Sequence record: OP557970.1
Direction: 5' to 3' (one strand)
DNA: 64,000 bases
From: Escherichia phage ph0021
The translations under genes and the position numbers were made by a program. Each line of letters begins with the position of its first letter. Position 1 is the stretch's first letter. Below, piece by piece: positions 1,371 through 61,811 of the stretch. The notes under the pieces are model-generated. The model ran no database searches, was not told where the DNA came from, and was given only the letters and a program-made list of their open reading frames with translations.

Positions 1371-2237
1371 ATGTTCATTCAAGAACCAAAGAAATTGATT
1401 GATACCGGCGAAATTGGTAACGCTTCTACTGGTGATATCTTATTCGACGGTGGTAATAAAATTAATAGTGATTTTAACGCAATTTATAATGCGTTTGGCG
1501 ATCAGCGTAAAATGGCAGTAGCAAATGGCACTGGAGCAGATGGTCAAATTATCCATGCTACTGGGTATTATCAAAAACACTCTATTACAGAGTACGCAAC
1601 TCCAGTGAAAGTTGGCACTAGACATGATATTGATACCTCTACTGTAGGTGTTAAAGTTATTATTGAAAGAGGCGAACTCGGCGATTGTGTTGAATTCATT
1701 AACTCTAATGGATCAATATCAGTTACTAATCCTTTAACAATTCAAGCTATTGATTCAATTAAAGGTGTTTCAGGTAATTTAGTAGTAACTAGCCCATATA
1801 GTAAAGTAACTTTACGCTGTATTTCATCTGATAATTCTACATCGGTTTGGAATTATTCTATTGAAAGTATGTTTGGACAAAAGGAATCACCAGCTGAAGG
1901 TACATGGAATATTTCTACATCCGGATCAGTTGATATTCCACTATTTCATCGCACTGAATACAATATGGCTAAATTGTTAGTTACGTGCCAATCGGTAGAT
2001 GGAAGAAAAATTAAAACGGCAGAAATAAATATTCTTGTAGATGCTGTTAATTCAGAAGTCATTTCTTCTGAATATGCTGTCATGCGGGTTGGAAATGAAA
2101 CAGAAGAAGACGAAATCGCTAATATTGCATTTAGTATTAAAGAAAATTATGTAACGGCAACTATAAGTTCTTCAACTGTCGGTATGAGAGCAGCAGTTAA
2201 AGTTATCGCTACGCAGAAAATCGGGGTGGCTCAATAA
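1371..2237 (+). CDS. 9: baseplate wedge / long tail fiber attachment protein gp9
   Basis: 288-aa ORF starting MFIQEPKKLIDTGEIGNASTGDILFDGGNK, recognised as T4 gp9; late promoter upstream. Confidence 0.92.
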   Translation: MFIQEPKKLIDTGEIGNASTGDILFDGGNKINSDFNAIYNAFGDQRKMAVANGTGADGQIIHATGYYQKHSITEYATPVKVGTRHDIDTSTVGVKVIIERGELGDCVEFINSNGSISVTNPLTIQAIDSIKGVSGNLVVTSPYSKVTLRCISSDNSTSVWNYSIESMFGQKESPAEGTWNISTSGSVDIPLFHRTEYNMAKLLVTCQSVDGRKIKTAEINILVDAVNSEVISSEYAVMRVGNETEEDEIANIAFSIKENYVTATISSSTVGMRAAVKVIATQKIGVAQ

Positions 2238-4042
2238 TGAAACAAAATATTAATATCGGTAATGTTGTAGATGATGGTACCGGTGACTACCTGCGTAAAG
2301 GTGGTATAAAAATAAATGAAAACTTTGATGAGCTTTATTATGAACTTGGTGACGGTGATGTTCCATATTCAGCTGGTGCCTGGAAAACTTATAATGCTTC
2401 ATCAGGACAAACACTAACAGCAGAATGGGGAAAATCATACGCTATTAATACTTCGTCTGGAAGAGTAACACTGCAACTTCCTAAAGGAACTGTTAATGAT
2501 TATAATAAAGTAATTAGAGCTAGGGATGTATTTGCAACATGGAATGTTAATCCAGTTACTTTAGTAGCCGCTTCTGGTGATACTATCAAAGGATCATCGT
2601 CATCGGTTGAAATTAACGTTCAATTTAGTGATTTAGAGCTAGTTTATTGCGCTCCGGGCCGTTGGGAATATGTCAAAAATAAACAAATTGACAAAATTAT
2701 TAGTTCAGACATTAGCAATGTAGCTCGTAAAGAATTTTTAGTCGAAGTTCAAGGACAAACAGACTTTTTAGATATTTTCCGTGGAACTAGTTATAATGTT
2801 AATAACATCCGAGTAAAACATCGTGGTAACGAATTGTATTACGGTGATGTATTTAGCGAAAACAGTGACTTTGGCTCTCCGGGCGAAAATGAAGGCGAAT
2901 TAGTTCCTCTTGATGGATTTAATATTCGATTAAGACAGCCTTGTAATATTGGTGACACCGTTCAAATTGAAACATTTATGGATGGTGTATCGCAATGGAG
3001 AAGTTCATATACAAGACGCCAAATAAAAGTACTGGATTCAAAACTAACATCAAAGACTTCTTTAGAAGGAAGCATTTATGTTACTGATTTATCGGCGATG
3101 AAATCAATTCCATTTTCTGCATTTGGATTAATTCCTGGTGAACCCATTAATCCTAACTCTCTTGAGGTTCGTTTTAATGGAATTTTACAGCAGCAGGCTG
3201 GAACAGCTGGATATCCTCTGTTTTTGTGTGAAGGCGCTAATTCAGATACGCAAGAAGGATGTATATCTCTTGGCGGCGAATGGAAAGAATCAAACACCGA
3301 TTATTCTATAGAATATGAAGACGGAAAACCTATCAGTCTTTTATTTGATAGAAAATTTGAATCCGGTGACATTATCGTTATAACATGGTTCAATAATGAT
3401 TTAGGAACTCTTTTAGAAAAAGATGACATTATTGAATTAACGGATGACCGTTATGTTAGCAAAGGATCATCTACCGAAGTTACTGGTGATGTAGCCTTAA
3501 CGGATTTTGATAAAATCGGTTGGCCAAATGTTGAAAAAGTTGATTCTTATACTAGAACGTATAATTCAATATCATCTATTTTCGATAGCATTTATCCTGT
3601 AGGTTCAATTTATGAAAATGCTATAAATCCAAATAATCCGGCGACTTATATGGGATTTGGTTCATGGAAATTATTTGGTAAAGGACAGGTTTTAGTAGGA
3701 TGGAATGATGATGTTACGGATCCAAACTTTGCTTTAAACAATAATGATTTAGATTCTAGCGGAAATCCTTCACATACTGCCGGTGGAACAGTTGGAACAA
3801 CAACAGTGACACTTGAGAATGCAAATCTTCCTGCAACTAAAACCGACGAAAGAGTTTTAATTGAAGACGAAAACGGATCAGTTATTATTGGAGGTTGCCA
3901 ATATGACCCAGATGAAACTGGTCCTATATATACAAAATATCGTGAAGACTACGCAACAACAAACTCTTCACATACTCCTCCTGCTAATATTAGTAATATT
4001 CAACCGTCTATTACTGTATACCGTTGGATAAGGATTGCATAA
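2237..4042 (+). CDS. 10: baseplate wedge protein gp10
   Basis: 601-aa ORF, length and position match T4 gp10 (602 aa); start overlaps gp9 stop. Confidence 0.9.
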
Positions 4043-45964: not shown

Positions 45965-46213
45965 TTACTTCAATGTTACCACAAAGTGACGAACTGCTTT
46001 TCGTGCAGCAGAAGCCAGAGGCTTAGCATACTTAAGTTCATCTTTTTCCTGAAGCTCAGCAGCTAATGCAGTTTGAGCAGGATTTAGATGTTTGAAATAA
46101 CGCAGGATTTCAAGAGCTTCGGCTTCAACATCAATAGATGCGCCATAGTTTTCGTGACCATTATTCCATGCGTTTCGTTGCAGTTCAAGAGCGTGTTGTA
46201 ATTGTTTAATCAT
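45965..46213 (-). CDS. rIII: lysis inhibition accessory protein rIII
   Basis: 82-aa ORF, T4 rIII length, immediately downstream of gene 31; late promoter upstream. Confidence 0.8.
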   Translation of the reverse strand: MIKQLQHALELQRNAWNNGHENYGASIDVEAEALEILRYFKHLNPAQTALAAELQEKDELKYAKPLASAARKAVRHFVVTLK

Positions 46214-46352: not shown

Positions 46353-46360
46353 TATTTATA
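46353..46360 (-). promoter_or_regulatory. late promoter upstream of rIII
   Basis: Minus-strand TATAAATA in the 31-rIII intergenic region. Confidence 0.5.
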
Positions 46361-46696
46361 TCACTTATAAAGACATGGAATAGCTTTATAGTGGCAAGTG
46401 ACGAATTTTTGTTTAATTTCTTTTGGCTGCTTAAGACCCAGAGCTACAAAAGGATGCGGAACATTTCGAATTTGACCAACTGGAAGAGAAGTCAAATCAC
46501 CAACTTCGCAGAAACCTTCAGGAACATCAGGACCAACAGAGTGAACTACACACAGTTCAGGAACTTCACCTTGAACACGTTTACCGATAATAAGTCCTGA
46601 TTCTGTAACTTCTTCATCACCAGCTTGTGCAGGTTCAGAAACTAAAATAACATATTCACCGACAGCACGAATTGGTAGCTGTTGTACTTCAGACAT
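46361..46696 (-). CDS. 31: co-chaperonin gp31 (GroES analogue)
   Basis: 111-aa ORF, T4 gp31 length and position. Confidence 0.85.
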
Positions 46697-46752
46697 CGTT
46701 TTTCCTTTTTGTTAACAGATGAATTAATAATAACAAATAATTCTTAAAGCAT

Positions 46753-47061
46753 TTATTTACCAATAAATTGAAGCAAATGCTCAACTTTCATACCATTAAC
46801 AGAAATCAATTTGCCAATAGAAAAACCTCGCCATGCGCCAAGTTCAACATCAAATACTGGAATCATGTCAGTAGATTCTTTCCGAGTAGATTCAGTCAAT
46901 TTACCAGTTTGCATGGTTGGCATAAAGTCTGCATCACGAGTACCTTTCATAGTACGAATAGTACCATCAGACTTTTCAAAAACTACGTTTGAAACACCCA
47001 TGGACAATTTGGTTTTCAAAATTTCGCGAATTGCTACTTTCTGCTCAGTTGTCAGTTTCAT
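46753..47061 (-). CDS. hypothetical protein (T4 31.1 position)
   Basis: 102-aa ORF. Confidence 0.6.
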   Translation of the reverse strand: MKLTTEQKVAIREILKTKLSMGVSNVVFEKSDGTIRTMKGTRDADFMPTMQTGKLTESTRKESTDMIPVFDVELGAWRGFSIGKLISVNGMKVEHLLQFIGK

Positions 47062-47298
47062 TTATTTACCTATTACAGTTTTAATATGAGTTGTTCCACG
47101 TTCTTTAAGGGTGGAAAGTAATTTTTGGCATTTTTCTAAATCAGATTTCCAACTATATGGTCTATCAATACTAGTCCAATCAGTTTTATAATACTGTTTC
47201 CATTTAGAGAAAAAATATTTCTTATACTCTACAGCAAACGAGATGTTCTCGTTAGAATAAGAACTAATTGCTGTAAGCTTTACCAAACGAAATTTCAT
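47062..47298 (-). CDS. hypothetical protein (T4 31.2 position)
   Basis: 78-aa ORF. Confidence 0.55.
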   Translation of the reverse strand: MKFRLVKLTAISSYSNENISFAVEYKKYFFSKWKQYYKTDWTSIDRPYSWKSDLEKCQKLLSTLKERGTTHIKTVIGK

Positions 47299-47879
47299 TA
47301 TTCACCACAGAATTCGTTGATATTTTCCCAGTTTAACTTATTCAAGTTTTTCTTAGGAACATTAAACACTTCAATACCTGCATTTCGCAGAATATCATCC
47401 CAGCCAGGTTTATTTTTATCGTATGTTTCACAATAAACCAACTTTTTAATTCCAGATTGAGCTATTGCTTTTGCACAATCTGGGCAAGGAGAAAGTGTTA
47501 CATACATAGTAGCACCTTCAATTGAAGAACCATTTCGTGCAGCAAACAAAATCGCATTTAGTTCAGCATGAATTTCATTTTTAGACGACCATTCAGAGTG
47601 AGCGCTACGATGTTCTTTCGCCAAGACAAAACGATCAGTTGAACCAAATGATACACATTCGGGTTTATGACCTTGGATAATAGTATGTTTAGGTTTATTC
47701 AGCAACCAACCTTGCTCGGCAGCATAATCACAGCAGTTCACACCACCAGCAGGTGAACCATTATATCCGGTAGAAATAATACGTCCATTCTTTTCAATTA
47801 CTGCTCCTACCTTCCAGGAGCAACATTTTGATTCTTGTGATACTAAATATGCAATTTGAAGTACTGTACTCGCTTTCAT
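47298..47879 (-). CDS. cd: dCMP deaminase
   Basis: 193-aa ORF with cytidine/dCMP deaminase zinc motifs HAELNAI and SPCPDCAKAI. Confidence 0.92.
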   Translation of the reverse strand: MKASTVLQIAYLVSQESKCCSWKVGAVIEKNGRIISTGYNGSPAGGVNCCDYAAEQGWLLNKPKHTIIQGHKPECVSFGSTDRFVLAKEHRSAHSEWSSKNEIHAELNAILFAARNGSSIEGATMYVTLSPCPDCAKAIAQSGIKKLVYCETYDKNKPGWDDILRNAGIEVFNVPKKNLNKLNWENINEFCGE

Positions 47880-48214
47880 TTCATAATCACCAGATAAGCA
47901 GATTTAGCAGTTTCAACACGATAAATTTCATGACGAAGTTTAGTTATACTTTTAATAACAGAACTAATTATATTCTGCCCATCTTTAAAGCGGTTTTTCT
48001 TATCAATAAAAATTGCACCAGTCATCTTTTTGTGAAGCTCAACTGGATACTTCGTCACAATAATAGCATCATACACAGAAGGATGAATACTATTCACCAG
48101 AGTATCATTCATTAAAGTTATTCTAATGAACTTTGCTGTTTCAGAGTCAAGCGCTCTATGATCGCCAGTATCATTTTCAAGACAATTATCAATTATATCA
48201 GTTAAATTCATCAT
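47876..48214 (-). CDS. hypothetical protein (cd.x cluster)
   Basis: 112-aa ORF. Confidence 0.55.
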   Translation of the reverse strand: MMNLTDIIDNCLENDTGDHRALDSETAKFIRITLMNDTLVNSIHPSVYDAIIVTKYPVELHKKMTGAIFIDKKNRFKDGQNIISSVIKSITKLRHEIYRVETAKSAYLVIMK

Positions 48215-48447
48215 AGTACGCCATACACCCTTTGTGCTTCAACTAATCCATCAAAATCCAATTTAAGATGCGATATTTGATCGCCATCACCTGGATTCAC
48301 AATTACTAATACTGAACGAGGAGTTTCGGTAATAACACGAACCGATGTTTCAGGAAATCGTTCAGAAACCTTATTTACTAATTCCTGCGCAAATAGTTTA
48401 ACTTTTTCTTGAAATTCTTTAACAGTAATTGGTTTTTCACTTAGCAT
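48211..48447 (-). CDS. hypothetical protein (cd.x cluster)
   Basis: 78-aa ORF. Confidence 0.5.
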   Translation of the reverse strand: MLSEKPITVKEFQEKVKLFAQELVNKVSERFPETSVRVITETPRSVLVIVNPGDGDQISHLKLDFDGLVEAQRVYGVL

Positions 48448-48983
48448 GTTGATCCCAGCTCCTTACTTTCAACGTTTTTAACTAATTTGACAGAAACTAA
48501 TTCAGCATCTTGGGTAATCATTACTGGACCTTCTTCATACTCTTCAAGATATTCTAGAGCTTTCTTTTTAGCTTCTTCCTTCGTATCAGTTTGAGCATAG
48601 ATATAAAACATACAACCAGTAATACCTACTACTTTCCATTTAATTTCTTTATCAGTTTTAATTTCAAATTTACTGACAGAATCATCTTTTTGAACTTCTT
48701 CGAAAAAATAATATTCTGACATATAAGTAATTGAAAACAACGGGCTATCTTTATAGCATTCGCCCATTACATCAACAGCTTTATACCAGTAATCGTCAAT
48801 TTCGCGTTTAATGCTAATAACATTCTTCGCAGGATCAATTTTTACTTTAAATGAATTTTCATCAATAAACTGGGCAATTCGTTTATTAGCCCCACAGGTT
48901 TCATTAAAAATATCTTTATATCCAGCTTTAAAGCGATAAACCTTATCTTCTTCAAACCATTCGCTCATTTTCAATTTCCTCAT
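48441..48983 (-). CDS. hypothetical protein (cd.x cluster)
   Basis: 180-aa ORF with early promoter upstream. Confidence 0.6.
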   Translation of the reverse strand: MRKLKMSEWFEEDKVYRFKAGYKDIFNETCGANKRIAQFIDENSFKVKIDPAKNVISIKREIDDYWYKAVDVMGECYKDSPLFSITYMSEYYFFEEVQKDDSVSKFEIKTDKEIKWKVVGITGCMFYIYAQTDTKEEAKKKALEYLEEYEEGPVMITQDAELVSVKLVKNVESKELGSTC

Positions 48984-48998
48984 TTGTTTGGTAGAGCT

Positions 48999-49028
48999 AT
49001 AATATCACAACTCTACCGTAAAGTAAAC
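48999..49028 (-). promoter_or_regulatory. early promoter (GTTTAC-N18-TATTAT)
   Basis: Minus-strand -35/-10 hexamers upstream of the 180-aa ORF. Confidence 0.5.
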
Positions 49029-49030
49029 TA

Positions 49031-49306
49031 TTAAATTGCTTTGAATTCTGATGTCTGTGATTCAAAGCGAATGTCGCCTTTGATGACTAGCTCAGCATCA
49101 AGACCGAATACGACAATGATATGCGCGGAACCTGGATACAGCGTAATTGCAATAGAATCCACTTGGTCTGGAAGCAAAGCGTTCAATACATGAGTCACTT
49201 GAGCATGGATTCGAAGTTCAGCTGCGTTATCAAGCTTTTCAAACATATTATTAGCGATAATTTGACTAAACACTACTTCTACGATTTTAGAATAAGTCGG
49301 AAACAT
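49031..49306 (-). CDS. hypothetical protein (cd.x cluster)
   Basis: 91-aa ORF. Confidence 0.5.
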   Translation of the reverse strand: MFPTYSKIVEVVFSQIIANNMFEKLDNAAELRIHAQVTHVLNALLPDQVDSIAITLYPGSAHIIVVFGLDAELVIKGDIRFESQTSEFKAI

Positions 49307-49308
49307 AT

Positions 49309-49509
49309 TTACCTCACATAATTTTCTTCAAGCCAATCAATAACATCCAACGCATTATCAAAAGTTGAACCATCTACTTTGTCTTCTGTTTCATAATCAA
49401 GAACATCTAAACCTACTCTTCCATTAACAATAGGCCATAAACAAAACAGGTATTTCTTTTCTTTTTCAATTTTATCGCAAAGATGATAAATTTTTTCTAT
49501 GTTATTCAT
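49309..49509 (-). CDS. hypothetical protein (cd.x cluster)
   Basis: 66-aa ORF. Confidence 0.5.
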   Translation of the reverse strand: MNNIEKIYHLCDKIEKEKKYLFCLWPIVNGRVGLDVLDYETEDKVDGSTFDNALDVIDWLEENYVR

Positions 49510-49698
49510 AAGTTTTCCATGGTAAAGGCAGTTTAGTTTTCTTTACTGTTAGTTCAACATCAGGATTCTTTTCTCTTAATTTAAGGCATTCCTCCCAAGC
49601 TCTGATTTCACTAGTGAATACACAAAATTGCCCATTACTAGTACCGACTAAACCACTATTTACAATAATAATAGCCCAAGTTTCATGATGCCACGCCA

Positions 49699-49699
<1 letters not shown>
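49502..49699 (-). CDS. hypothetical protein (cd.x cluster)
   Basis: 65-aa ORF. Confidence 0.5.
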
Positions 49700-50792
<1,093 letters not shown>

Positions 50793-50888
50793 TTAATACT
50801 ACCCCACGGTCCAAATCCATATATACTGCACCATTGCATGCATCAATGTAACGGTCTGAACATTCAATATAACGTTCTAACAGAGCTT

Positions 50889-51119
50889 TCATTTATTTTT
50901 CTCAACTAATGATTGAATATAATCATGCAGATCTTTAGACGCCTTAGCCCAATTATTTTGATATTCATTTTTAAGATTAGCACGTGATTGAGCTAATAAA
51001 ACATCATTAGTTGGAGGTAAAGATTCTAACCGCTGAATCTGGCGTCCGTAAATCATTGCAGCCATCTCGGATTCATAAATCAATCCTTTGAGATGTTCAA
51101 ATTGATGCCATGAAATCAT
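50889..51119 (-). CDS. hypothetical protein
   Basis: 76-aa ORF downstream of the spanin pair. Confidence 0.5.
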   Translation of the reverse strand: MISWHQFEHLKGLIYESEMAAMIYGRQIQRLESLPPTNDVLLAQSRANLKNEYQNNWAKASKDLHDYIQSLVEKNK

Positions 51120-51415
51120 TTACATTTATCCTCTTTTAACTCTTGACGATAATAACATATCATAGTTTTTTGATCATGTACATATCGTTTTACATCATTA
51201 AGCCAAATACGAAATTCCTGGGAATCTTCAAATGGCATACCGACCCAAGCTTTACCATCAATAACTTTAACTTGCCAAGATAGTTTAGCTTCGTCATATG
51301 ACTTTATTTGTACAGGCCAATTAGGATGAACTGTTTCTTTCTTTACTTCTAGAGGCTTTGTCGAACAACCAACTAGAAGACCAATAGATAATATTACTGC
51401 TGATAGTTTAATCAT
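51116..51415 (-). CDS. outer-membrane spanin lipoprotein (Rz1-like, T4 pseT.2 position)
   Basis: 99-aa ORF with signal peptide and lipobox LLVGCS. Confidence 0.75.
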   Translation of the reverse strand: MIKLSAVILSIGLLVGCSTKPLEVKKETVHPNWPVQIKSYDEAKLSWQVKVIDGKAWVGMPFEDSQEFRIWLNDVKRYVHDQKTMICYYRQELKEDKCK

Positions 51416-51765
51416 TTAGAAAGGTCCTGGATGTCTTCTGCGAACTTGTTGAAGGAGTTGTTGATTTGTTTTTCAACCAATCCTGGCTTACGAGCCACCA
51501 CATCCGCCTTCTTTGCGTCTTTGCGCAGTTTTTCATTTTCACGCTCAATAGCAGCAATCGCCTCACGATTTTTATTATTCATCGCATCAATATAATTATA
51601 TTGATTTTTTAAATCATTTAATGCTAAAGCGTTTTCATTGGCCGTTTTTGTAATTTCTACAACAGACGTTTCTAATCCTTCAATTTTATTTTTTAAAATT
51701 AAAGAAGTTCCGCCTAATGCAATTACAATTAATAGCAAACCTGCTGTCGTATTACTTAATTGCAT
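51412..51765 (-). CDS. inner-membrane spanin (Rz-like, T4 pseT.3 position)
   Basis: 117-aa ORF with N-terminal transmembrane helix and coiled-coil periplasmic region; directly upstream of the lipoprotein gene. Confidence 0.7.
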   Translation of the reverse strand: MQLSNTTAGLLLIVIALGGTSLILKNKIEGLETSVVEITKTANENALALNDLKNQYNYIDAMNNKNREAIAAIERENEKLRKDAKKADVVARKPGLVEKQINNSFNKFAEDIQDLSK

Positions 51766-52259
51766 AAAGTTTTAATAACCTCTATAATATCGTCTTGAGA
51801 AAGACCGTTAATTAAAATATGATGTTCAGCTGGAGATTTAGAAATTTTAAAGCATGCCTCAACATCTTCTGCCATATCCGATGCACTACGATTTGGATTA
51901 CTAACCCCAAGGCGGTGTTTTCCCGTCAAAGGATTAACGATGATATAGCATTTGCAGCTATTGATATGAACATTGGGTTGAGTCTGATTAATGAACACTT
52001 CACAATCATACTTAGCGAGTTGATTTTCTAAAAAGACTTTCATCTCCTCAACCGCATCAGGAAGCATATCACGGGCTTGCTCAAGACGACGATTTCGATA
52101 TTCTTTAATGGTCGTTTTCCGCTTGACTTGCTTAGCTAAATCTTTCTTAAGATCGGTGATATATCCAACTCGACGATTTCCTTTGAATACAGAAATCCCA
52201 TCTGTAGTATCACCGTATGCTTCAACGACCATTTCAGTAGTAATAAGCTGCAAATCCAT
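51756..52259 (-). CDS. alc: Alc, inhibitor of host transcription on cytosine-containing DNA
   Basis: 167 aa from the second Met; T4 Alc length and position between pseT and rnlA; early promoter upstream. Confidence 0.8.
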   Translation of the reverse strand: MDLQLITTEMVVEAYGDTTDGISVFKGNRRVGYITDLKKDLAKQVKRKTTIKEYRNRRLEQARDMLPDAVEEMKVFLENQLAKYDCEVFINQTQPNVHINSCKCYIIVNPLTGKHRLGVSNPNRSASDMAEDVEACFKISKSPAEHHILINGLSQDDIIEVIKTLCN

Positions 52260-52290
52260 CATAAAGTCCTCATGTTATGTCAGTAAGACT

Positions 52291-52320
52291 ACTATAACAC
52301 AACATAAGGAACGTGTAAAC
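52291..52320 (-). promoter_or_regulatory. early promoter upstream of alc
   Basis: Minus-strand GTTTAC -35 and TATAGT -10; core and 5' UTR nearly identical to the promoter at 36503-36532. Confidence 0.6.
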
Positions 52321-52323
52321 AGC

Positions 52324-53911
<1,588 letters not shown>

Positions 53912-53919
53912 AATAAAAT

Positions 53920-53933
53920 GGGCCTTGCGGCCC
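53920..53933 (-). other. GC-rich hairpin between nrdB and denA
   Basis: GGGCC-TTGC-GGCCC in the short nrdB-denA junction. Confidence 0.4.
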
Positions 53934-53938
53934 ACTCC

Positions 53939-55117
53939 TTAAAAGTATTTTTTAAAACTCATCATAACTTTATCATCAACATCATTATCAATCTGTGCAA
54001 CAAGGTAAGATGACAATTCTACTTCTTGTGGCGCAGATTGAACATTATCAGAATTAAGATATTCACGAATCCAAGGATATGGATGTTTAACCGGAGCATC
54101 GGTAATTGGGCATGGAAGACCACACTGTTTCATACGAGATACAGTTAAGTAATCAATAAAGCTCCACATGCTATTTGTATTTAATCCAGGAACATCGCCA
54201 TCTTTAAATAAATGAACTGCCCAGTCTTTTTCCTGGCGGTTAACTTCCATGAAAATATCAACTGCTTCTTGTTCACACTCTTGAGCAATTTTAACCCATT
54301 CATCGCCATCAGTACCGGATTGAAGCTGACGAATAATATATTGGGTGCCTTTAAGGTGAAGCTGCTCATCACGTGCAATGAACTTCATAATCTTGGCATT
54401 ACCTTCCATGATTTCCATGTTCTTATGGAAGTTAAAGGTACATGCAAAAGATACATAAAAACGAATAGCTTCCAATGCGTTGATTACATGCAAACAGAGG
54501 TAAAGAGATTTCATTAGCTCACGCTTCCAATATGTCTCATGCTCAATAGCATCTTCAATAACGTCTTCGTCTGCATTAATTTCTTTTTGGTATTCGATAT
54601 CAGCTTTAGCGTTTTCCCAATAACGAGTTTTAGTCAGAACATCATCATAATAACGTCCAATGGATTCAGCACGTTTCATAATAGCTTCATCTAATACAAT
54701 CTCATCAAATACCTTTGACGGATCAGTATAAAGATTTCGCATGATATGGGTATATGAACGGCTGTGAATAGTTTCACTAAAAGTCCATGTAGCAACCCAT
54801 GTATCAAGACTTGGGTCTGAAATTAACGACATAAGTACAGCAGACGGTGCACGACCTTGAATGCTATCTAGAAGTGATTGATACTTCAGGTTATTAGTAA
54901 AAATATCTTGCTGATATTGAGGAAGCTTGTTAAATTGCGCAGCATCCATCATTAAGTTTACTTCTTCAGGACGCCAGAAAAATGACAACTGCTTTTCGGT
55001 TAAATCTTCAAAAACTTTATGACGTTGAATATCGTAACGCGCAATACCAAGACCTGAACCGAAGAACATAGGTTCTTTTAAAACATCAACTGGATTTGTA
55101 TTAAAAACTGTAGACAT
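53939..55117 (-). CDS. nrdB: ribonucleotide reductase small subunit NrdB, uninterrupted (no intron)
   Basis: 392 aa from MSTVFNTNPVD; continuous reading frame; TAATG overlap with the mobE stop. Confidence 0.93.
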   Translation of the reverse strand: MSTVFNTNPVDVLKEPMFFGSGLGIARYDIQRHKVFEDLTEKQLSFFWRPEEVNLMMDAAQFNKLPQYQQDIFTNNLKYQSLLDSIQGRAPSAVLMSLISDPSLDTWVATWTFSETIHSRSYTHIMRNLYTDPSKVFDEIVLDEAIMKRAESIGRYYDDVLTKTRYWENAKADIEYQKEINADEDVIEDAIEHETYWKRELMKSLYLCLHVINALEAIRFYVSFACTFNFHKNMEIMEGNAKIMKFIARDEQLHLKGTQYIIRQLQSGTDGDEWVKIAQECEQEAVDIFMEVNRQEKDWAVHLFKDGDVPGLNTNSMWSFIDYLTVSRMKQCGLPCPITDAPVKHPYPWIREYLNSDNVQSAPQEVELSSYLVAQIDNDVDDKVMMSFKKYF

Positions 55118-55848
55118 TAATTTTTCCTCTTTAAAATTCTGCCGCGTTTCCAACCTGGCGGTATAATATCATCTTTACCTATAAGCGTGCATTCACTTCC
55201 ATTATTAATCCATTTCTTACCGCGGATTCCTTTATAATCTCTTGGCTGTATTTTGTCAAACTTTGCGTCAAGCTGATATGCCCATCGAAATCCATAGGCA
55301 TATTGAAATTTACCCTCAGCACAATATTTGATATTTGACCCGTTTCCATTAACTGACCTGGACGCTGCGGCAATAGAGTGAAAGGTTTCTATGAAATCCC
55401 CATCTAATGAGAATTTATGTATTTCGATAGATGGGCATGCATACCTATTCACATTTGATACATGTTGTTTAGTTTCGTTTTTATGATGCTTGCCTAACAT
55501 TCCTCTAGGATGAGGATTATTTTTCCAATATTTCTTAAAGAAATCAGAATTAGCTTTAGCAAATAATTTTCTGTGCAAGCTATACAATCTGTTATTAATT
55601 CTATTACCAGCTTTATCTGTTGCCATTAACGTTAACGCAGAGGCAAGACCAAAATGGCCTTCATTTATCTTGCATAGTAATAGATGCGCTATAAAATGTT
55701 CTCTAGCTGTTAATTCAACTAAATTTTCTTTATCATCAGAACCTCCCATGCATTTAGGGACTATATGATGTGTCTCTTTATATTCGGATAAAGGTTCCCG
55801 AGCCTGAGCTCGGGAAATTAGGTCATTATAGATTTTTTGATAATTCAT
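55117..55848 (-). CDS. mobE: MobE-like HNH homing endonuclease between nrdA and nrdB
   Basis: 243-aa ORF with classical HNH motif ETHHIVPKCMGGSDDKENLVELTAREHFIAH. Confidence 0.85.
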   Translation of the reverse strand: MNYQKIYNDLISRAQAREPLSEYKETHHIVPKCMGGSDDKENLVELTAREHFIAHLLLCKINEGHFGLASALTLMATDKAGNRINNRLYSLHRKLFAKANSDFFKKYWKNNPHPRGMLGKHHKNETKQHVSNVNRYACPSIEIHKFSLDGDFIETFHSIAAASRSVNGNGSNIKYCAEGKFQYAYGFRWAYQLDAKFDKIQPRDYKGIRGKKWINNGSECTLIGKDDIIPPGWKRGRILKRKN

Positions 55849-58112
55849 TACAATTTACACGCTGCACAATCGTCGGCTTTAGGAGTTTCTATTTCATAAT
55901 CATCAGTACCAGAACCATCACGGGTATTATGATAATAGAAATTTTTAATGCCATAATACCATCCGTATAGCATGTCATCAATCATTATTGACATTGGAAC
56001 CTTTCCTTTTGGAAAAATCTGCGGGTCATAATATGTATTCGCTGAAGCTGATTGACATACCCATTTCAGCATAATAGCTACCTGCGTAAGATAAGGTTTA
56101 TTACCTTTCTTAGCTAATTTCCATGTATAATCATAGAGGTCTATGTTATGCTCAATATTGGGCACGACTTGATTAAAGGAACCCTCTTTTGATTCTTTAA
56201 CAGAGACTGGTCCACGTGGAGGCTCGATACCGTTTGTACTGTTAGAAACTTGGGAAGATGACTCACATGGCATAAGTGCTGATAATGTGCTATTACGGAT
56301 GCCAAAGAGCTTAAGGTCTTCCCGCAGCGCCGACCAGTCACAAACGTATTTTGGAGCTGCGATTTGGTCAATCTTTTTATTGTACCAGTCGATAGGTAAT
56401 TCGCCTCGAGACCAACGAGTGTCTGAATAATATTCGCAAGGTCCTTTTTCTTTGGCGAGCTTAATGGATGCTTTAATGAGTCCATACTGTAATCTCTCAA
56501 ATAGTTCATGTGTTAAATCGTTAGCATCTTCATAAGAAGCAAAGTTACTTGCCAGCCAAGCTGCATAGTTAGTAACACCTACACCGAGGTTACGACGCTT
56601 TTTAGCTTTTTCTGCTTCAGGAACTGGATATCCTTGGTAATCCAAAAGATTATCAAGAGCACGAACTTGGACTTCTGCCAATTCATTAATTTTATCTTGG
56701 TCTTGCCAGTCAAAATTATCCAGTACGAATGCAGAGAGAGTACACAATCCAATTTCAGCATCAGGACTATTCACATCATTTGTTGGAATAGCAATTTCAC
56801 AACACAAGTTACTCTGACGAATAGGTGCCTTTTCACGAATAAACGGAGTATAATTATTCGTATTATCGATGAACTGCACATAAATCCTTGCTGTTCCTGA
56901 GCGTTCAGTCATGAGCAATTCAAATAGTTCACGGGCTTTAATGCGCTTTTTACGAATATTAGGGTCTTTTTCTGCTGCTTCGTATAATTCGCGGAAACGG
57001 TCTTGGTCTTTAAAATAAGAATAATAAAGCTCGCCACCCATTTCATGCGGACTGAACAAAGTAATGTAGTCGTTCTTTCCAAAACGTTCCATCATCAAAT
57101 CATTCAGCTGGACGCCATAATCCATATGACGGATACGGTTTTCTTCTACACCTTTGTTATTTTTCAAAACGAGAAGATTTTCAACTTCCAAATGCCAAAT
57201 AGGATAATAAGCAGTAGCAGCGCCGCCACGAATTCCACCCTGTGAGCATGATTTAACAGCAGTCTGAAAATGTTTCCAAAAAGGAATAACACCAGTATGG
57301 CGTACTTCACCCATGCCAATCTTGGAACCTTCGGCACGAATCATACCAACGTTAATACCAATTCCAGCACGTTTGGAGATATATTCAACAATTGAAGCGG
57401 AAGCCTTATTGATAGACTTTAATGAATCACCTGCCTCAATAACAACACATGAACTAAACTGTCGAGTCGGAGTACGACAACCAGCCATAATAGGAGTTGG
57501 TAATGAAATCTGTCGAGTAGATACTGCTTCATAAAAATGAATAACATGTTTTAATCTATCAACAGGTTCATCTTGATGCAATGCCATTCCAATAGTCATA
57601 AATGCAAACTGTGGAGTTTCATAAATTTGACCAGTGGTTTTATCTTTAACTAGATATTTTTCTTTTAATTGCATCGCCCCGGAATAAGTAAATTCCATAT
57701 CCCGCTCATGCTTAATTTTTGATTCTAAAAATGTAATTTCTTCTGCTGAATATTTTGACAATAATTCAGGGTCATATTTACCTTCATTTACACAGTAAGA
57801 AATATGGTCAATAAATGAACATGGTTCATACTGTCCGTACACATGTTTACGAAGAGCGAACATTAGACAACGTGCAGCTACATATTGATAATCAGGCTCT
57901 TCAACCGAAATAGAATTCGCAGCGGCCTTAATGACAATAGTCTGAATATCATCAGTTGTCATTCCATCACGGAGATAAGATTTAATATTTTCATATAATT
58001 CATAAGGATCGACTGATGTTCCTTCAGCTGCCCAAGATAAAACTTTAATAATTTTTTGTGGGTCAAAGCTCTGAGAAACACCACTACTTTTGATAACATT
58101 AATTAATTGCAT
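55848..58112 (-). CDS. nrdA: ribonucleotide reductase large subunit NrdA
   Basis: 754-aa ORF, T4 NrdA length; conserved class Ia features and C-terminal CxxC. Confidence 0.95.
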   Translation of the reverse strand: MQLINVIKSSGVSQSFDPQKIIKVLSWAAEGTSVDPYELYENIKSYLRDGMTTDDIQTIVIKAAANSISVEEPDYQYVAARCLMFALRKHVYGQYEPCSFIDHISYCVNEGKYDPELLSKYSAEEITFLESKIKHERDMEFTYSGAMQLKEKYLVKDKTTGQIYETPQFAFMTIGMALHQDEPVDRLKHVIHFYEAVSTRQISLPTPIMAGCRTPTRQFSSCVVIEAGDSLKSINKASASIVEYISKRAGIGINVGMIRAEGSKIGMGEVRHTGVIPFWKHFQTAVKSCSQGGIRGGAATAYYPIWHLEVENLLVLKNNKGVEENRIRHMDYGVQLNDLMMERFGKNDYITLFSPHEMGGELYYSYFKDQDRFRELYEAAEKDPNIRKKRIKARELFELLMTERSGTARIYVQFIDNTNNYTPFIREKAPIRQSNLCCEIAIPTNDVNSPDAEIGLCTLSAFVLDNFDWQDQDKINELAEVQVRALDNLLDYQGYPVPEAEKAKKRRNLGVGVTNYAAWLASNFASYEDANDLTHELFERLQYGLIKASIKLAKEKGPCEYYSDTRWSRGELPIDWYNKKIDQIAAPKYVCDWSALREDLKLFGIRNSTLSALMPCESSSQVSNSTNGIEPPRGPVSVKESKEGSFNQVVPNIEHNIDLYDYTWKLAKKGNKPYLTQVAIMLKWVCQSASANTYYDPQIFPKGKVPMSIMIDDMLYGWYYGIKNFYYHNTRDGSGTDDYEIETPKADDCAACKL

Positions 58113-58429
58113 AAGTCCTCAACTTGAAAATCGTCTTTAAACAATCGGTTAACTATATGAGCTATTATATCACCATGACACGGCTTTGGTTTACATGTGC
58201 ATCCTAGCCTCATTCCACGTAAAGGCTCTAAATGTGCTTTAGTTATTTCTCCGGATTTAATTCGACGTATAAAATCTTTTTTGAATAATTCAATGGCAGC
58301 CTCCCGGCTGCCAGCATCTTTACCGACGTAATTTCCCCAAAATGTACCACGGTGAATATTAACATCAAAGTCGGATTTATATTTATTCACTACTCGGCAT
58401 ATACGGCCTGCGCGGTTGTAGGTGTTCAT
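58103..58429 (-). CDS. hypothetical protein (nrdA.1 position)
   Basis: 108-aa ORF overlapping the nrdA start. Confidence 0.6.
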
Positions 58430-58646
58430 ATTGTTCTTCCGTTAAAACAGTAATATCGTAGTAACAGTCAGAAGAAGTTTTAACTGTGGAAATTTTATTA
58501 TCAAAATACTCACGGGTCATTTTATGAGTATAATATTTTTTGCCATAAATGATAATAGGCTGATTTGGTCCTGGAACTTCTAACTCGCTTGGGTTAGGAA
58601 GTGTAAAAAGAACTACACCAGAAGTATCTTTAAATCGTAAAATCAT
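58383..58646 (-). CDS. hypothetical protein (nrdA.2 position)
   Basis: 87-aa ORF. Confidence 0.55.
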
Positions 58647-58669
58647 AAATCCTCACAATTAAATTAAAA

Positions 58670-58981
58670 TTACACCGCCATTTTTCCTTTCAAGACGCCG
58701 TGGGACTGATAATCTTTGAGAACGAAATCTTTAGGCCTGAGTTTAAGAATGTATTCCAATTGTTCTTTAGTAGAAAGATAGCGGAATTTATAAGGCAATC
58801 CGCCTATTATCAGTTCACAAAGCTCTTTAGGTTCACGACGCAAAATTTCTTTACATTGTTCTACGTGATTCATATAGATATGAGTATTACCGCCAGAAAA
58901 TATCAAATCTCCAGGAATAAGATTACACATCTTAGCTACAATATGAACTAACGCAGCATATGATGCAATATTAAATGGAAG
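58670..58981 (-). pseudogene. td: thymidylate synthase td, exon 2 only (exon 1 absent)
   Basis: Encodes LPFNIASYAALVHIVAKMCNLIPGDLIFSGGNTHIYMNHVEQ...KGKMAV, the conserved ThyA C-terminal region; no N-terminal ThyA coding sequence anywhere upstream. Confidence 0.85.
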
Positions 58982-59128
58982 CATTATGTTCAGATAAGGT
59001 CGTTAATCTTACCCCGGAATTATATCCAGCTGCATGTCACCATGCAGATCAGACTATATCTCCAACTTGTTAAAGCAAGTTGTCTATCGTTTCGAGTCAC
59101 TTGACCCTACTCCCCAAAGGGATAGTCG
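58982..59128 (-). mobile_element. 3' portion of the td group I intron (catalytic core up to the 3' splice site)
   Basis: Minus-strand sequence ...GGGTCAAGTGACTCGAAACGATAGACAACTTGCTTTAACAAGTTGGAGATATAGTCTG...GGGGTAAGATTAACGACCTTATCTGAACATAATG, recognised as the T4 td intron 3' end, abutting exon 2. Confidence 0.8.
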
Positions 59129-59380
59129 TTAGGCATTTATGTAGAACCAATTCCATTTATCAGATTTTACACGATAAGTAACTAATCCAGACGAAATTTT
59201 AAAATGTCTAGCTGCATCTGCTGCACAATCAAAAATAACCCCATCACATTCATCTTCCCATCCCATATCACGTAAAAGATGTTCAGCTTTTTCAACGAGT
59301 TCAGAATCTTTACCAATGATATTAAAATACCATTTACCTCTAACTTCTGAATCTTTGATGCTCTGACGTTGTAATCTCAT
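59129..59380 (-). CDS. chimeric ORF: unknown 44-aa N-terminus fused to the C-terminal DNA-binding segment of I-TevI
   Basis: C-terminus CDGVIFDCAADAARHFKISSGLVTYRVKSDKWNWFYINA matches the I-TevI C-terminal HTH region; the GIY-YIG catalytic domain is absent; early promoter and AAGGAG ribosome-binding site upstream. Confidence 0.75.
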   Translation of the reverse strand: MRLQRQSIKDSEVRGKWYFNIIGKDSELVEKAEHLLRDMGWEDECDGVIFDCAADAARHFKISSGLVTYRVKSDKWNWFYINA

Positions 59381-59405
59381 TTTATTCTCCTTAGTTGATA
59401 GGGTA

Positions 59406-59435
59406 ATAGTATCACACTACTACCCTTCCGTAAAC
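59406..59435 (-). promoter_or_regulatory. early promoter driving the I-TevI-tail chimeric ORF
   Basis: Minus-strand GTTTAC-N18-TACTAT followed by AAGGAGAATAAA-ATG. Confidence 0.5.
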
Positions 59436-59800
59436 TACTTTTTGAAAGTTTTTCGCAAAAGTTCAATGATTTCATCTACATTGTTTTCGTCTACAATGCA
59501 GTGAATTTTTGTTACGCCAGAAATCTTGTCTTCGACTTCATCTTCTTCAAAAGTCGATTCTTTATACTCACGAAAACAATGAAATTCATCTTCACAGACG
59601 TTGAAGTAAAAATGCTTTCCATTTGCGCATTTAATGTGTTTTATTACTCTAAATCCATCAGCAGAGAAAGCTTCTTTAACTTCAAACCATCCGCCATTAT
59701 CTCGAATAATTTTAACTATTGATGAATTAGAACGTGGGCGATAATTAATAAATGTATCAATAAGTCTTGGAACAAGCTCATACTTTTTGCCAATATACAT
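59435..59800 (-). CDS. hypothetical protein (frd.x position)
   Basis: 121-aa ORF with GAGGA ribosome-binding site. Confidence 0.55.
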   Translation of the reverse strand: MYIGKKYELVPRLIDTFINYRPRSNSSIVKIIRDNGGWFEVKEAFSADGFRVIKHIKCANGKHFYFNVCEDEFHCFREYKESTFEEDEVEDKISGVTKIHCIVDENNVDEIIELLRKTFKK

Positions 59801-59820
59801 TACGTTTTCCTCATTTTAAT

Positions 59821-59838
59821 AGGGGCTTTATAGCCCCT
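59821..59838. other. stem-loop AGGGGCT-TTAT-AGCCCCT
   Basis: 7-bp GC-rich stem between two small ORFs. Confidence 0.35.
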
Positions 59839-59844
59839 TAATAA

Positions 59845-60096
59845 TTATTGTTCAATCAGTCCCATGTAAAATTCTGCGTCTTCAGAATCCATGCCATCAC
59901 AATATTCATTAGCCATAAAGCGGGTGAGGTCTTCAAGAGGACCTTCAATGACAATAGAAAAATTGCAATAATTGGGATCATCATGAATACTTGTGATACT
60001 AAGTTCAGGATAACGATTACGAATAATTTCTTCAATATATTCAAAATCAACGATGTCAATATCAACTTTAGCCATATTATTTTCCTCTTTAATCAT
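59845..60096 (-). CDS. hypothetical acidic protein (frd.x position)
   Basis: 83-aa ORF downstream of the gene 32 terminator, with a candidate early promoter. Confidence 0.55.
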
Positions 60097-60118
60097 CAGC
60101 AGTATTGCCGATAGTTGT

Positions 60119-60148
60119 ATAGTACCATAAAGCTTTATGCTTGTAAAC
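60119..60148 (-). promoter_or_regulatory. candidate early promoter downstream of the gene 32 terminator
   Basis: Minus-strand GTTTAC-N18-TACTAT upstream of the 83-aa ORF. Confidence 0.4.
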
Positions 60149-60178
60149 CGTTTTGTGAAAAAATTTTGAAATAAAAAA

Positions 60179-60197
60179 GGGGACCTCTAGGGTCCCC
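60179..60197 (-). terminator. intrinsic terminator of gene 32
   Basis: GGGGACC-TCTAG-GGTCCCC hairpin followed on the - strand by a TTTTTT run, 23 nt after the gp32 stop. Confidence 0.7.
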
Positions 60198-60219
60198 AAT
60201 TAATTAGTAATATAATCTA

Positions 60220-61128
60220 TTAAAGGTCATTCAAAAGGTCATCCAGGTCCGTGTCATCAGCACTAGATGAACTGCCAGAGCTTGAGCTCATAAAATCATC
60301 TTCAGTTTTTGTTTTGAAGTCATCAACATTGAATGCATCCAAATCATCAGCAACTTTATCAGCTTTCTTAGCGGCAGTTGCTGCGGCACCACCCATAGCA
60401 GCAGTTCCCATAACTTGACTGAACTTAGTGCTCAGTTCTTCAAACGATTTGAATTTATCTTTAGAAGTCATTTCAGAAAGGTCAACCATTTGTTCGAACA
60501 GTTCTTTCTGGAAAGATTCATCATCAATGTTTGGAATCGCAGATTGATTCAGGAATTTAGATTCGTCGTAGTTACTAAAACCAGAAACTTGTTTAACTTT
60601 CAGTACAAAGTTAGCACCTTCCCACGGACAAGTTACATCAACCGGAGTTTCACCCATTTCAACATCAACTGCAATCATTGCATTGATTTTATCCCAGATT
60701 TTCTTACCGAAACGGTATTTAAATACTTTGCCTTCATTTTCTGGAGCAGCTGGGTCTTTTACTACAAGAATGTTAGCCCAGTAAGAAGTTTTACGTTTAA
60801 CAAGACCGTACTCTTTATTGTCAGTATTATACAAATCATTTTTACTGATGTACTGACATACTGGACAAGAATCGTAATCACCGTAGGTAGATGAGCATGT
60901 TTCGATATACCATTTACCATTTTTCTTGAAACCGTGATTTACAAGAAGTGCAAATGGTGCTTGTTCATCATTTTTAGACGGAAGAAAACGAATTACTGCT
61001 TGACCGTTACCCGCATTATCGAGTTTCAGTTTCCACTCGCCTTTATCTTCAGAAGAAAAACCACCTTTATTTCCAGCCAGTTTAGCCATTTGTGCAGCGA
61101 GTTCAGCAGTAGATTTACGTTTAAACAT
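60220..61128 (-). CDS. 32: single-stranded DNA-binding protein gp32
   Basis: 302-aa ORF starting [50 protein letters not shown]; acidic Ser/Asp-rich C-terminus. Confidence 0.95.
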
Positions 61129-61178
61129 TTTTATTTCCTTTTTAATTTAATTAACAGTTGGTGCTATGACACTTTACC

Positions 61179-61811
61179 TCATAGCTGGCATAATTCACAA
61201 TACTCTGGGTCTTCGAGAGGTATCCAACCTGAGTTGAAATACTTTACCATCGATTTAGCAGTTGTATCAGTTATATTTATATTACCCTTAACTCTTCGCC
61301 ATCCAGGAGTTTTACCGTACAGATTAGAGGATAATAATAACACATAATTCTCGTAAGCAATATGAGATAATTTCCAAGACTCTATATTAGCTCGTGATGT
61401 TTTCCAAGGTCTAAAATCGTCACGGTTCATATAATTAGCCAATCTCATATGCTCTCTAACTTCCGGGTCTTTGGCTGGATGAGTTTCACCACTCACACCA
61501 AATCCGCCGCCAGCATATACCAGATTAAAATAGTCTGGATTATCTCTGGCATTTACTTCAAGTTGGTATTTTCGCTCTGCTTCAATAACATCCAAATCAT
61601 CATCAATTTGAATTATTTTAACGCTCGGTTTTTGAAGCATTACCGCATTTAAAAATCTTTTTTGTTTACATGAGCTCCAGTATTCCTTTCCGGAAGAGTC
61701 ATATATTATTCCATTCTCAAATGAGCAATTTAATTTACTACCGATATAGTAGTACGGCGGAGTCTTATTTTTGACACGGTCTTCAAATGTAAACCAATAT
61801 ACTATATTCAT
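61179..61811 (-). CDS. segG: GIY-YIG homing endonuclease (SegG-like) between genes 59 and 32
   Basis: 210-aa ORF with GIY-YIG-type N-terminus (IVYWFTF...PPYYYIGSK); occupies the position of T4 segG. Confidence 0.7.
   Translation of the reverse strand: MNIVYWFTFEDRVKNKTPPYYYIGSKLNCSFENGIIYDSSGKEYWSSCKQKRFLNAVMLQKPSVKIIQIDDDLDVIEAERKYQLEVNARDNPDYFNLVYAGGGFGVSGETHPAKDPEVREHMRLANYMNRDDFRPWKTSRANIESWKLSHIAYENYVLLLSSNLYGKTPGWRRVKGNINITDTTAKSMVKYFNSGWIPLEDPEYCELCQL

Follow-up and report, generated by a model that had tools for sequence, protein, structure and literature searches.

A T4-type PseT.3/PseT.2 spanin gene pair in a predicted early gene string of Escherichia phage ph0021, and a nearby accessory gene apparently inactivated by a 32-nt deletion

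The genes described here lie in a 64,000-nt stretch of the Escherichia phage ph0021 sequence (record OP557970.1), referred to below as the window, and all of the ORFs at the locus are on the minus strand, tightly packed across 49.7-53.5 kb. In the direction of transcription, the string begins with rnlA (52324-53484), which matches the Pfam T4 RNA ligase family and does not overlap the next gene, alc (51756-52262), encoding the inhibitor of host transcription (Pfam PF17527, ALC, E = 1.8e-91; phrog_1253). The end of alc overlaps by 10 nt the start of pseT.3 (51412-51765), which encodes a 117-aa i-spanin. Successive ATGA overlaps then join pseT.3 to pseT.2 (51116-51415), encoding the 99-aa precursor of an o-spanin lipoprotein, pseT.2 to pseT.1 (50889-51119; 76 aa), and pseT.1 to a 47-codon ORF (50749-50892) that represents the 5' remnant of an accessory gene. 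The 3' remnant, a frame of 62 codons when read from its first ATG (50604-50792), overlaps the 47-codon ORF, and its stop overlaps, again as ATGA, the start of pseT (49699-50607). The product of pseT, a polynucleotide 5'-kinase/3'-phosphatase, matches the Pfam families HAD_PNKP (4.6e-59) and AAA_33 (2.2e-23). The ORF at 50892 had been recorded in the initial annotation as having 46 codons; its ATGA coupling is as described there, although it contains 47 sense codons and falls almost wholly outside the interval 50889-51765 to which it had been assigned. At the other end of the string, a mechanical ORF call extends rnlA to a GTG start (386 aa), whereas GenBank, as for T4, annotates 374 aa from an internal ATG (MQELFNN...); the additional codons are probably no more than open frame upstream of the gene.

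A search with the interval 50550-52350 matched 504 phage records, with identities of at least 90% in nearly all of them. The interval is 100% identical to OR584013 and approximately 97% identical to many Escherichia coli Tequatrovirus genomes. The encoded proteins are likewise close to those of T4, with identities of 88% for PseT.3, 99% for PseT.2, 96-97% for PseT.1, and 96.7% for PseT. The T4 gene order continues downstream of pseT, where cd (dCMP deaminase, 47301-47879, 99.5% identical to T4), gene 31 (co-chaperonin, 46364-46696, 100%), and rIII (lysis-inhibition accessory protein, 45968-46213, 100%), also on the minus strand, follow at an offset of approximately 84.3 kb from their T4 coordinates. 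In the direction of transcription, rIII lies approximately 5 kb downstream of the spanin genes. The small ORFs are not chance open frames, because three of them match PHROG families (8e-37, 3.5e-43, and 7e-42) and because 504 records match the region. A scan of 49000-54000 on both strands against Rfam, with E values up to 1, found no RNA family, and a repeat search of 50500-51900 returned short AT-rich chance matches only. From sequence comparison, the locus is almost certainly the T4-type early gene string rnlA-alc-pseT.3-pseT.2-pseT.1-(broken accessory ORF)-pseT of a Tequatrovirus, the functions of its genes being assigned from their T4 orthologues.

The initial annotation had described the 117-aa ORF as possessing an N-terminal membrane anchor and a coiled coil, and both are borne out. 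Residues 6-24 (TTAGLLLIVIALGGTSLIL) form the most hydrophobic 19-residue stretch of the protein (Kyte-Doolittle mean 2.11), giving a single N-terminal transmembrane helix of the type II, N-in/C-out kind, which is followed by lysines (KNK). From approximately residue 25 to 62 the sequence keeps one continuous heptad register in which, by a crude count, hydrophobic residues occupy 7 of 8 a/d positions, and residues 22-91 give weak matches to coiled-coil families in Pfam. A short linker between the periplasmic helices is formed by P94-G95; the protein has no cysteine, and its C-terminal residue is K117. It matches phrog_739, 'Rz-like spanin', with E = 8.2e-37. The T4 protein has the same length and differs from it at 14 positions, mostly in or beside the membrane anchor. 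By homology, the 117-aa ORF is the orthologue of T4 PseT.3, the i-spanin.

The product of the following gene begins MIKLSAVILSIGLLVG-C17-S18. The proposed lipobox, in the context LLVGCS, is present by pattern match as LVGC at residues 14-17, with Ser rather than Asp at position +2, and the predicted mature form is 83 aa. Cysteines occur at positions 17, 87, and 98, and a glutamate at position 92. The protein matches phrog_812, also 'Rz-like spanin', with E = 3.5e-43, has homologues in 1241 phage records, and is identical to the 99-aa T4 PseT.2 but for one residue, which is ambiguous in the T4 record. The 99-aa ORF is, by the same kind of comparison, the orthologue of PseT.2, the T4 o-spanin. 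The two genes show the 'separated' spanin architecture, in which the i-spanin gene comes first and the o-spanin is encoded by a separate gene on the same strand, here with a 4-nt ATGA overlap. A separate-gene spanin pair had been proposed for this position, and its assignment is confirmed by the membership of both products in PHROG spanin families and by their 88% and 99% identity to PseT.3 and PseT.2; none of the observations speaks against it.

The pair is an already known T4 system that has been characterised experimentally. Plasmid-borne T4 pseT.3 and pseT.2 alone complement a lambda Rz-am/Rz1-am lysogen (Kongari et al. 2018, PMC6139136). The T4 i-spanin has a helical periplasmic domain with coiled-coil propensity, the substitutions C87S and C98S in PseT.2 abolish lysis, and residues E92 (o-spanin) and K117 (i-spanin) covary (PMC6139136). 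The ph0021 and T4 pairs share their lengths, anchor, lipobox, Cys87 and Cys98, the Glu92-Lys117 pair, and the flanking genes alc and pseT.1. T4 spanin complexes build up across the peptidoglycan mesh, are freed by the endolysin, and then fuse the inner and outer membranes (PMC6139136). The sequence of events proposed here is taken from the T4 and lambda literature and is applied to ph0021 on the strength of the 88-99% identity. The N-terminal helix of PseT.3 would sit in the inner membrane, with its helical, partly coiled-coil domain reaching into the periplasm. There it would bind the periplasmic domain of PseT.2, bridging the envelope through the peptidoglycan mesh, and Cys87 and Cys98 of PseT.2 would form disulfides needed for function. 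[quoted passage not shown] From the experiments on the T4 orthologues we infer that this pair would disrupt the outer membrane and complement lambda Rz/Rz1. This copy, nearly identical to the textbook system of T4, matters little.

The lambda Rz/Rz1 pair performs the same job with the same topology, an inner-membrane helical subunit and an outer-membrane lipoprotein that together bridge the periplasm and fuse the membranes. The family scans revealed no sequence homology between the two pairs: no Pfam family rose above the cut-off, and the single related NCBIfam match was to LysB (TIGR03495, E = 0.017). The two systems differ in several respects. The genes described here are separate, whereas those of lambda are embedded; the o-spanin, at 83 aa in its mature form, is larger and is structured, whereas that of lambda is proline-rich and disordered; the i-spanin, unlike that of lambda, has no cysteines; and the pair, again unlike that of lambda, is expressed early, to judge from T4, and lies outside any lysis cassette.

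The initial annotation had also suggested that a lysis cassette at this locus may contain additional small components. The locus is not a lysis cassette. The neighbours of the spanin genes are alc, rnlA, pseT.1, and pseT rather than holin or endolysin genes, and T4 endolysin e and holin t gave no tblastn match anywhere in the 64-kb window. In T4 itself the spanin genes lie away from the holin and endolysin genes (PMC6139136). Nor does the locus appear to have the late expression of a lysis cassette. The minus strand from 46360 to 61274 contains no copy of the T4 late-promoter motif TATAAATA. The transcripts of the T4 orthologues pseT.1, pseT.2, alc, pseT.3, and pseT are classed as early, as are the PseT.1, PseT.2, and Alc proteins, with PseT.3 and PseT classed as middle proteins (PMC9697503 supplements). 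A consensus scan found, in the rnlA-alc gap, a sigma-70-like match on the minus strand at 52291-52319, TTTACA-17-TATAGT with a TG extension, which is a candidate early promoter for the alc-to-pseT string; the promoter and terminator scan as a whole returned sites no more numerous than in shuffled sequence. The coupling of adjacent genes does not indicate a shared function, because an ATGA also joins the 3' remnant of the accessory gene to pseT and because alc and pseT.3 overlap by 10 nt. The string thus appears to be an early unit of functionally unrelated genes, in which alc and pseT are context and not lysis genes. The proposal of additional lysis components finds no support: in addition to the missing e and t, PseT.1 lacks an export signal, the 47-codon ORF is a gene remnant, and the T4 spanin pair is sufficient by itself (PMC6139136).

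The 76-aa ORF, correctly described as overlapped by the lipoprotein gene (4 nt, ATGA), encodes an orthologue of T4 PseT.1 (NP_049835) that is 96% identical to it and occupies the same place downstream of pseT.2. Residues 2-74 align with positions 1-72 of the 72-position profile phrog_2347 (E = 7.1e-42), and homologues occur in 803 phage records, with identity falling to approximately 36% in Klebsiella and Erwinia phages. Conservation of the small ORFs in relatives, on which the initial annotation had made its proposal depend, is thus found for PseT.1; the truncated 47-codon form is found in OR584013 only. PseT.1 has no transmembrane helix or hydrophobic segment, no signal peptide, and no lipobox in its sequence. 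AlphaFold2 predicts a two-helix hairpin (residues 4-32 and 40-74) with a pLDDT of 94.9, the model resting on a shallow alignment in which a deep homology search contributed 11 close relatives only. Foldseek comparison of this model with the PDB and BFVD gave no match at E <= 0.001; the matches were to generic helical hairpins and uncharacterised phage proteins and therefore provide no functional lead. Searches of Pfam, NCBIfam, and PDB sequences returned nothing significant, and a literature search on pseT.1 found no paper. Homologues of PseT.1 bear a precomputed Pfam label, PF26888, which was not reproduced in the Pfam search run here.

The C-terminus of PseT.1 reads EKNK in ph0021 and EKK in T4, a difference of one base in a run of A residues that also gives rise to the ATGA overlap between pseT.1 and the following ORF. 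In the window and in phage FriedrichZschokke the run at the end of pseT.1 (50889-50900) contains five A's, so that the protein ends in EKNK and its TGA overlaps the following ATG. In UFV-AREG1 six A's give EKK, as in T4, and a TAA is followed directly by the ATG. The coupling between pseT.1 and the 47-codon ORF is therefore not conserved, because the length of the A-run varies.

The interval between pseT.2 and pseT differs in gene content among relatives and is therefore a variable slot. In RB43 it is empty, and pseT.2 leads straight into pseT. It holds PseT.1 alone in T4 and Klebsiella phage Roth21, PseT.1 and one further ORF in most Tequatrovirus genomes, and PseT.1 and two further ORFs in Mosigvirus LF82-35. 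In EcS1 and Erwinia phage FBB1, three unrelated genes precede a PseT.1 that abuts pseT. Ac42 has alc and then an unrelated 82-aa ORF in this interval, and Proteus phage PM2 has unrelated ORFs of 234 and 59 aa; PseT.1 shows no similarity to the 82-aa protein of Ac42, to the 59-aa protein that occupies the same slot in PM2, or to RIII.

Our best guess is that PseT.1 is a separate, conserved, early cytoplasmic protein, possibly a small protein-binding modulator, that acts apart from envelope disruption. It might instead be a cytoplasmic lysis accessory, either a regulator of the spanins or holin in the manner of RIII, a modulator of spanin stoichiometry or insertion, or a factor in lysis inhibition. 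Such a role would fit the overlap of its start with the pseT.2 stop, seen here, in T4, in the other Tequatrovirus genomes examined, and in Mosigvirus LF82-35, as well as the adjacency of the two genes in Roth21, where they are separated by a 10-nt gap and PseT.1 is approximately 38% identical. It would also fit the early co-expression of pseT.1 with pseT.2 in T4 (PMC9697503 supplements) and the predicted character of PseT.1 as a small, helical, cytoplasmic protein, as RIII is. However, PseT.3 and PseT.2 suffice for spanin function in lambda (PMC6139136); RB43, Ac42, and PM2 retain the spanin pair without a PseT.1 homologue; and EcS1 and Erwinia FBB1 have three unrelated genes between the spanins and PseT.1. 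Variable synteny and the sufficiency of the pair both argue against an obligatory link, and PseT.1 cannot meet the periplasmic domains of the spanins because it has no export signal. Furthermore, the resemblance to RIII does not extend to sequence, and ATGA overlaps also join unrelated genes in the string. We consider a lysis role very improbable. Somewhat less remote, and still distinctly unlikely, is that PseT.1 acts alongside the polynucleotide kinase PseT in RNA repair rather than with the spanins. Its gene abuts pseT in T4, Roth21, EcS1, and Erwinia FBB1, and in the last two it is parted from the spanin genes and not from pseT. Against this association, one or two unrelated ORFs lie between the two genes in most Tequatrovirus genomes and in the Mosigvirus; RB43, Ac42, and PM2 possess pseT and no PseT.1 homologue; and neither fold nor family evidence (Pfam, NCBIfam, Foldseek) points to RNA or kinase binding.

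Two observations were made during these comparisons. The gene order in Ac42, rnlA - i-spanin - pseT.2 - alc - 82-aa ORF - pseT (1406-3733 of the examined stretch), places alc downstream of the spanins, whereas it is upstream in T4, a local rearrangement. Additionally, a PseT.1 homologue with 79% identity is on deposit under Xanthomonas pisi DSM 18956, as a hypothetical protein from a 353-nt contig, and most likely represents contamination of that assembly by a T4-like phage.

The two short ORFs between pseT.1 and pseT match complementary parts of a single family. Codons 1-40 of the 47-codon ORF align with positions 1-40 of the 105-position profile phrog_2364 (E = 3.9e-15), its last 7 codons being out-of-frame read-through, and the frame at 50604-50792 aligns with positions 46-105 of the same profile (E = 2.2e-31). 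The uninterrupted frame of approximately 99-106 codons that is expected of PHROG 2364 is absent. When the locus is aligned with UFV-AREG1 and FriedrichZschokke, in which the gene is intact at 106 codons, a 32-nt gap in ph0021 falls exactly between two copies of the 10-nt sequence CCCTGCGAAA; these relatives carry the two copies 32 nt apart, and a single copy remains at the junction in ph0021 (50773-50782, minus strand). The accessory frame is shifted, as 32 is not divisible by 3. The gene is present intact in 708 phage records and bears the label RB32ORF217c in RB51; T4 has no copy, its pseT.1 lying directly against pseT. The ph0021 locus thus corresponds to that of the RB32ORF217c-like ORF of many Tevenvirinae (99-106 aa), with matching sequence to either side of the deletion; the gene is intact in approximately 700 other records and here is split in two. 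When 50,697 records were searched with a 71-nt query across the junction, an uninterrupted match was found in one, OR584013. In all 21 further records with coverage of most of the query, the match is broken into two pieces that span 99-103 nt.

Judged by these alignments, the 47-codon ORF and the next ORF are halves of one non-essential accessory gene and not separate genes. The 47-codon ORF does begin with ATG, shares an ATGA with the end of pseT.1, and is an annotated CDS in OR584013, all of which would be expected of a small gene that functions in its own right. That it is one is nonetheless scarcely credible, given that its family match is limited to its first 40 codons on a profile of 105 positions, that the truncated form is present in one of 50,697 records, that the gene is absent from T4, and that the ORF has neither a hydrophobic segment nor a lipobox. 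The deletion itself might be a sequencing or assembly artefact, the gene being intact in the real phage, since the deletion is found in one database record, identical to the window, and the surroundings are approximately 97% identical to relatives with the intact gene. Yet the exact loss of one copy of a 10-nt direct repeat together with the spacer is a signature of slippage or microhomology rather than of a homopolymer or base-calling error, and T4 does without the gene, which is clearly dispensable. We therefore regard an artefact as unlikely; the evidence favours a real microhomology-mediated or slippage deletion of 32 nt, apparently private to this genome, that would have inactivated the accessory gene. 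The accessory gene cannot be needed for lysis, because it is missing from T4 and broken here.

The intact 106-aa ORF is called a 'putative homing endonuclease' in the BASEL-collection phages FriedrichZschokke (1555-1875 of the examined stretch) and TadeuszReichstein. The Pfam, NCBIfam, and PDB sequence searches lend this label no support, having revealed no nuclease domain (GIY-YIG, HNH, LAGLIDADG, and the like); the intact UFV-AREG1 protein gave no Pfam match at E values up to 10, no NCBIfam match, and no significant PDB sequence match. For annotation, the two 47-aa 'hypothetical proteins' of OR584013, the second of which is annotated in GenBank from the ATG at 50747 within the 3' remnant, are best described as the halves of one frameshifted gene. 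The same record is entitled 'Pseudomonas phage PsgM02F', with Pseudomonas coronafaciens pv. garcae from coffee leaves as its stated host, and its 100% identity to ph0021 probably extends over the whole window. Because a phage at the T4 species level, with proteins 88-100% identical to those of T4, is unexpected on Pseudomonas, the host label of OR584013 is worth checking.
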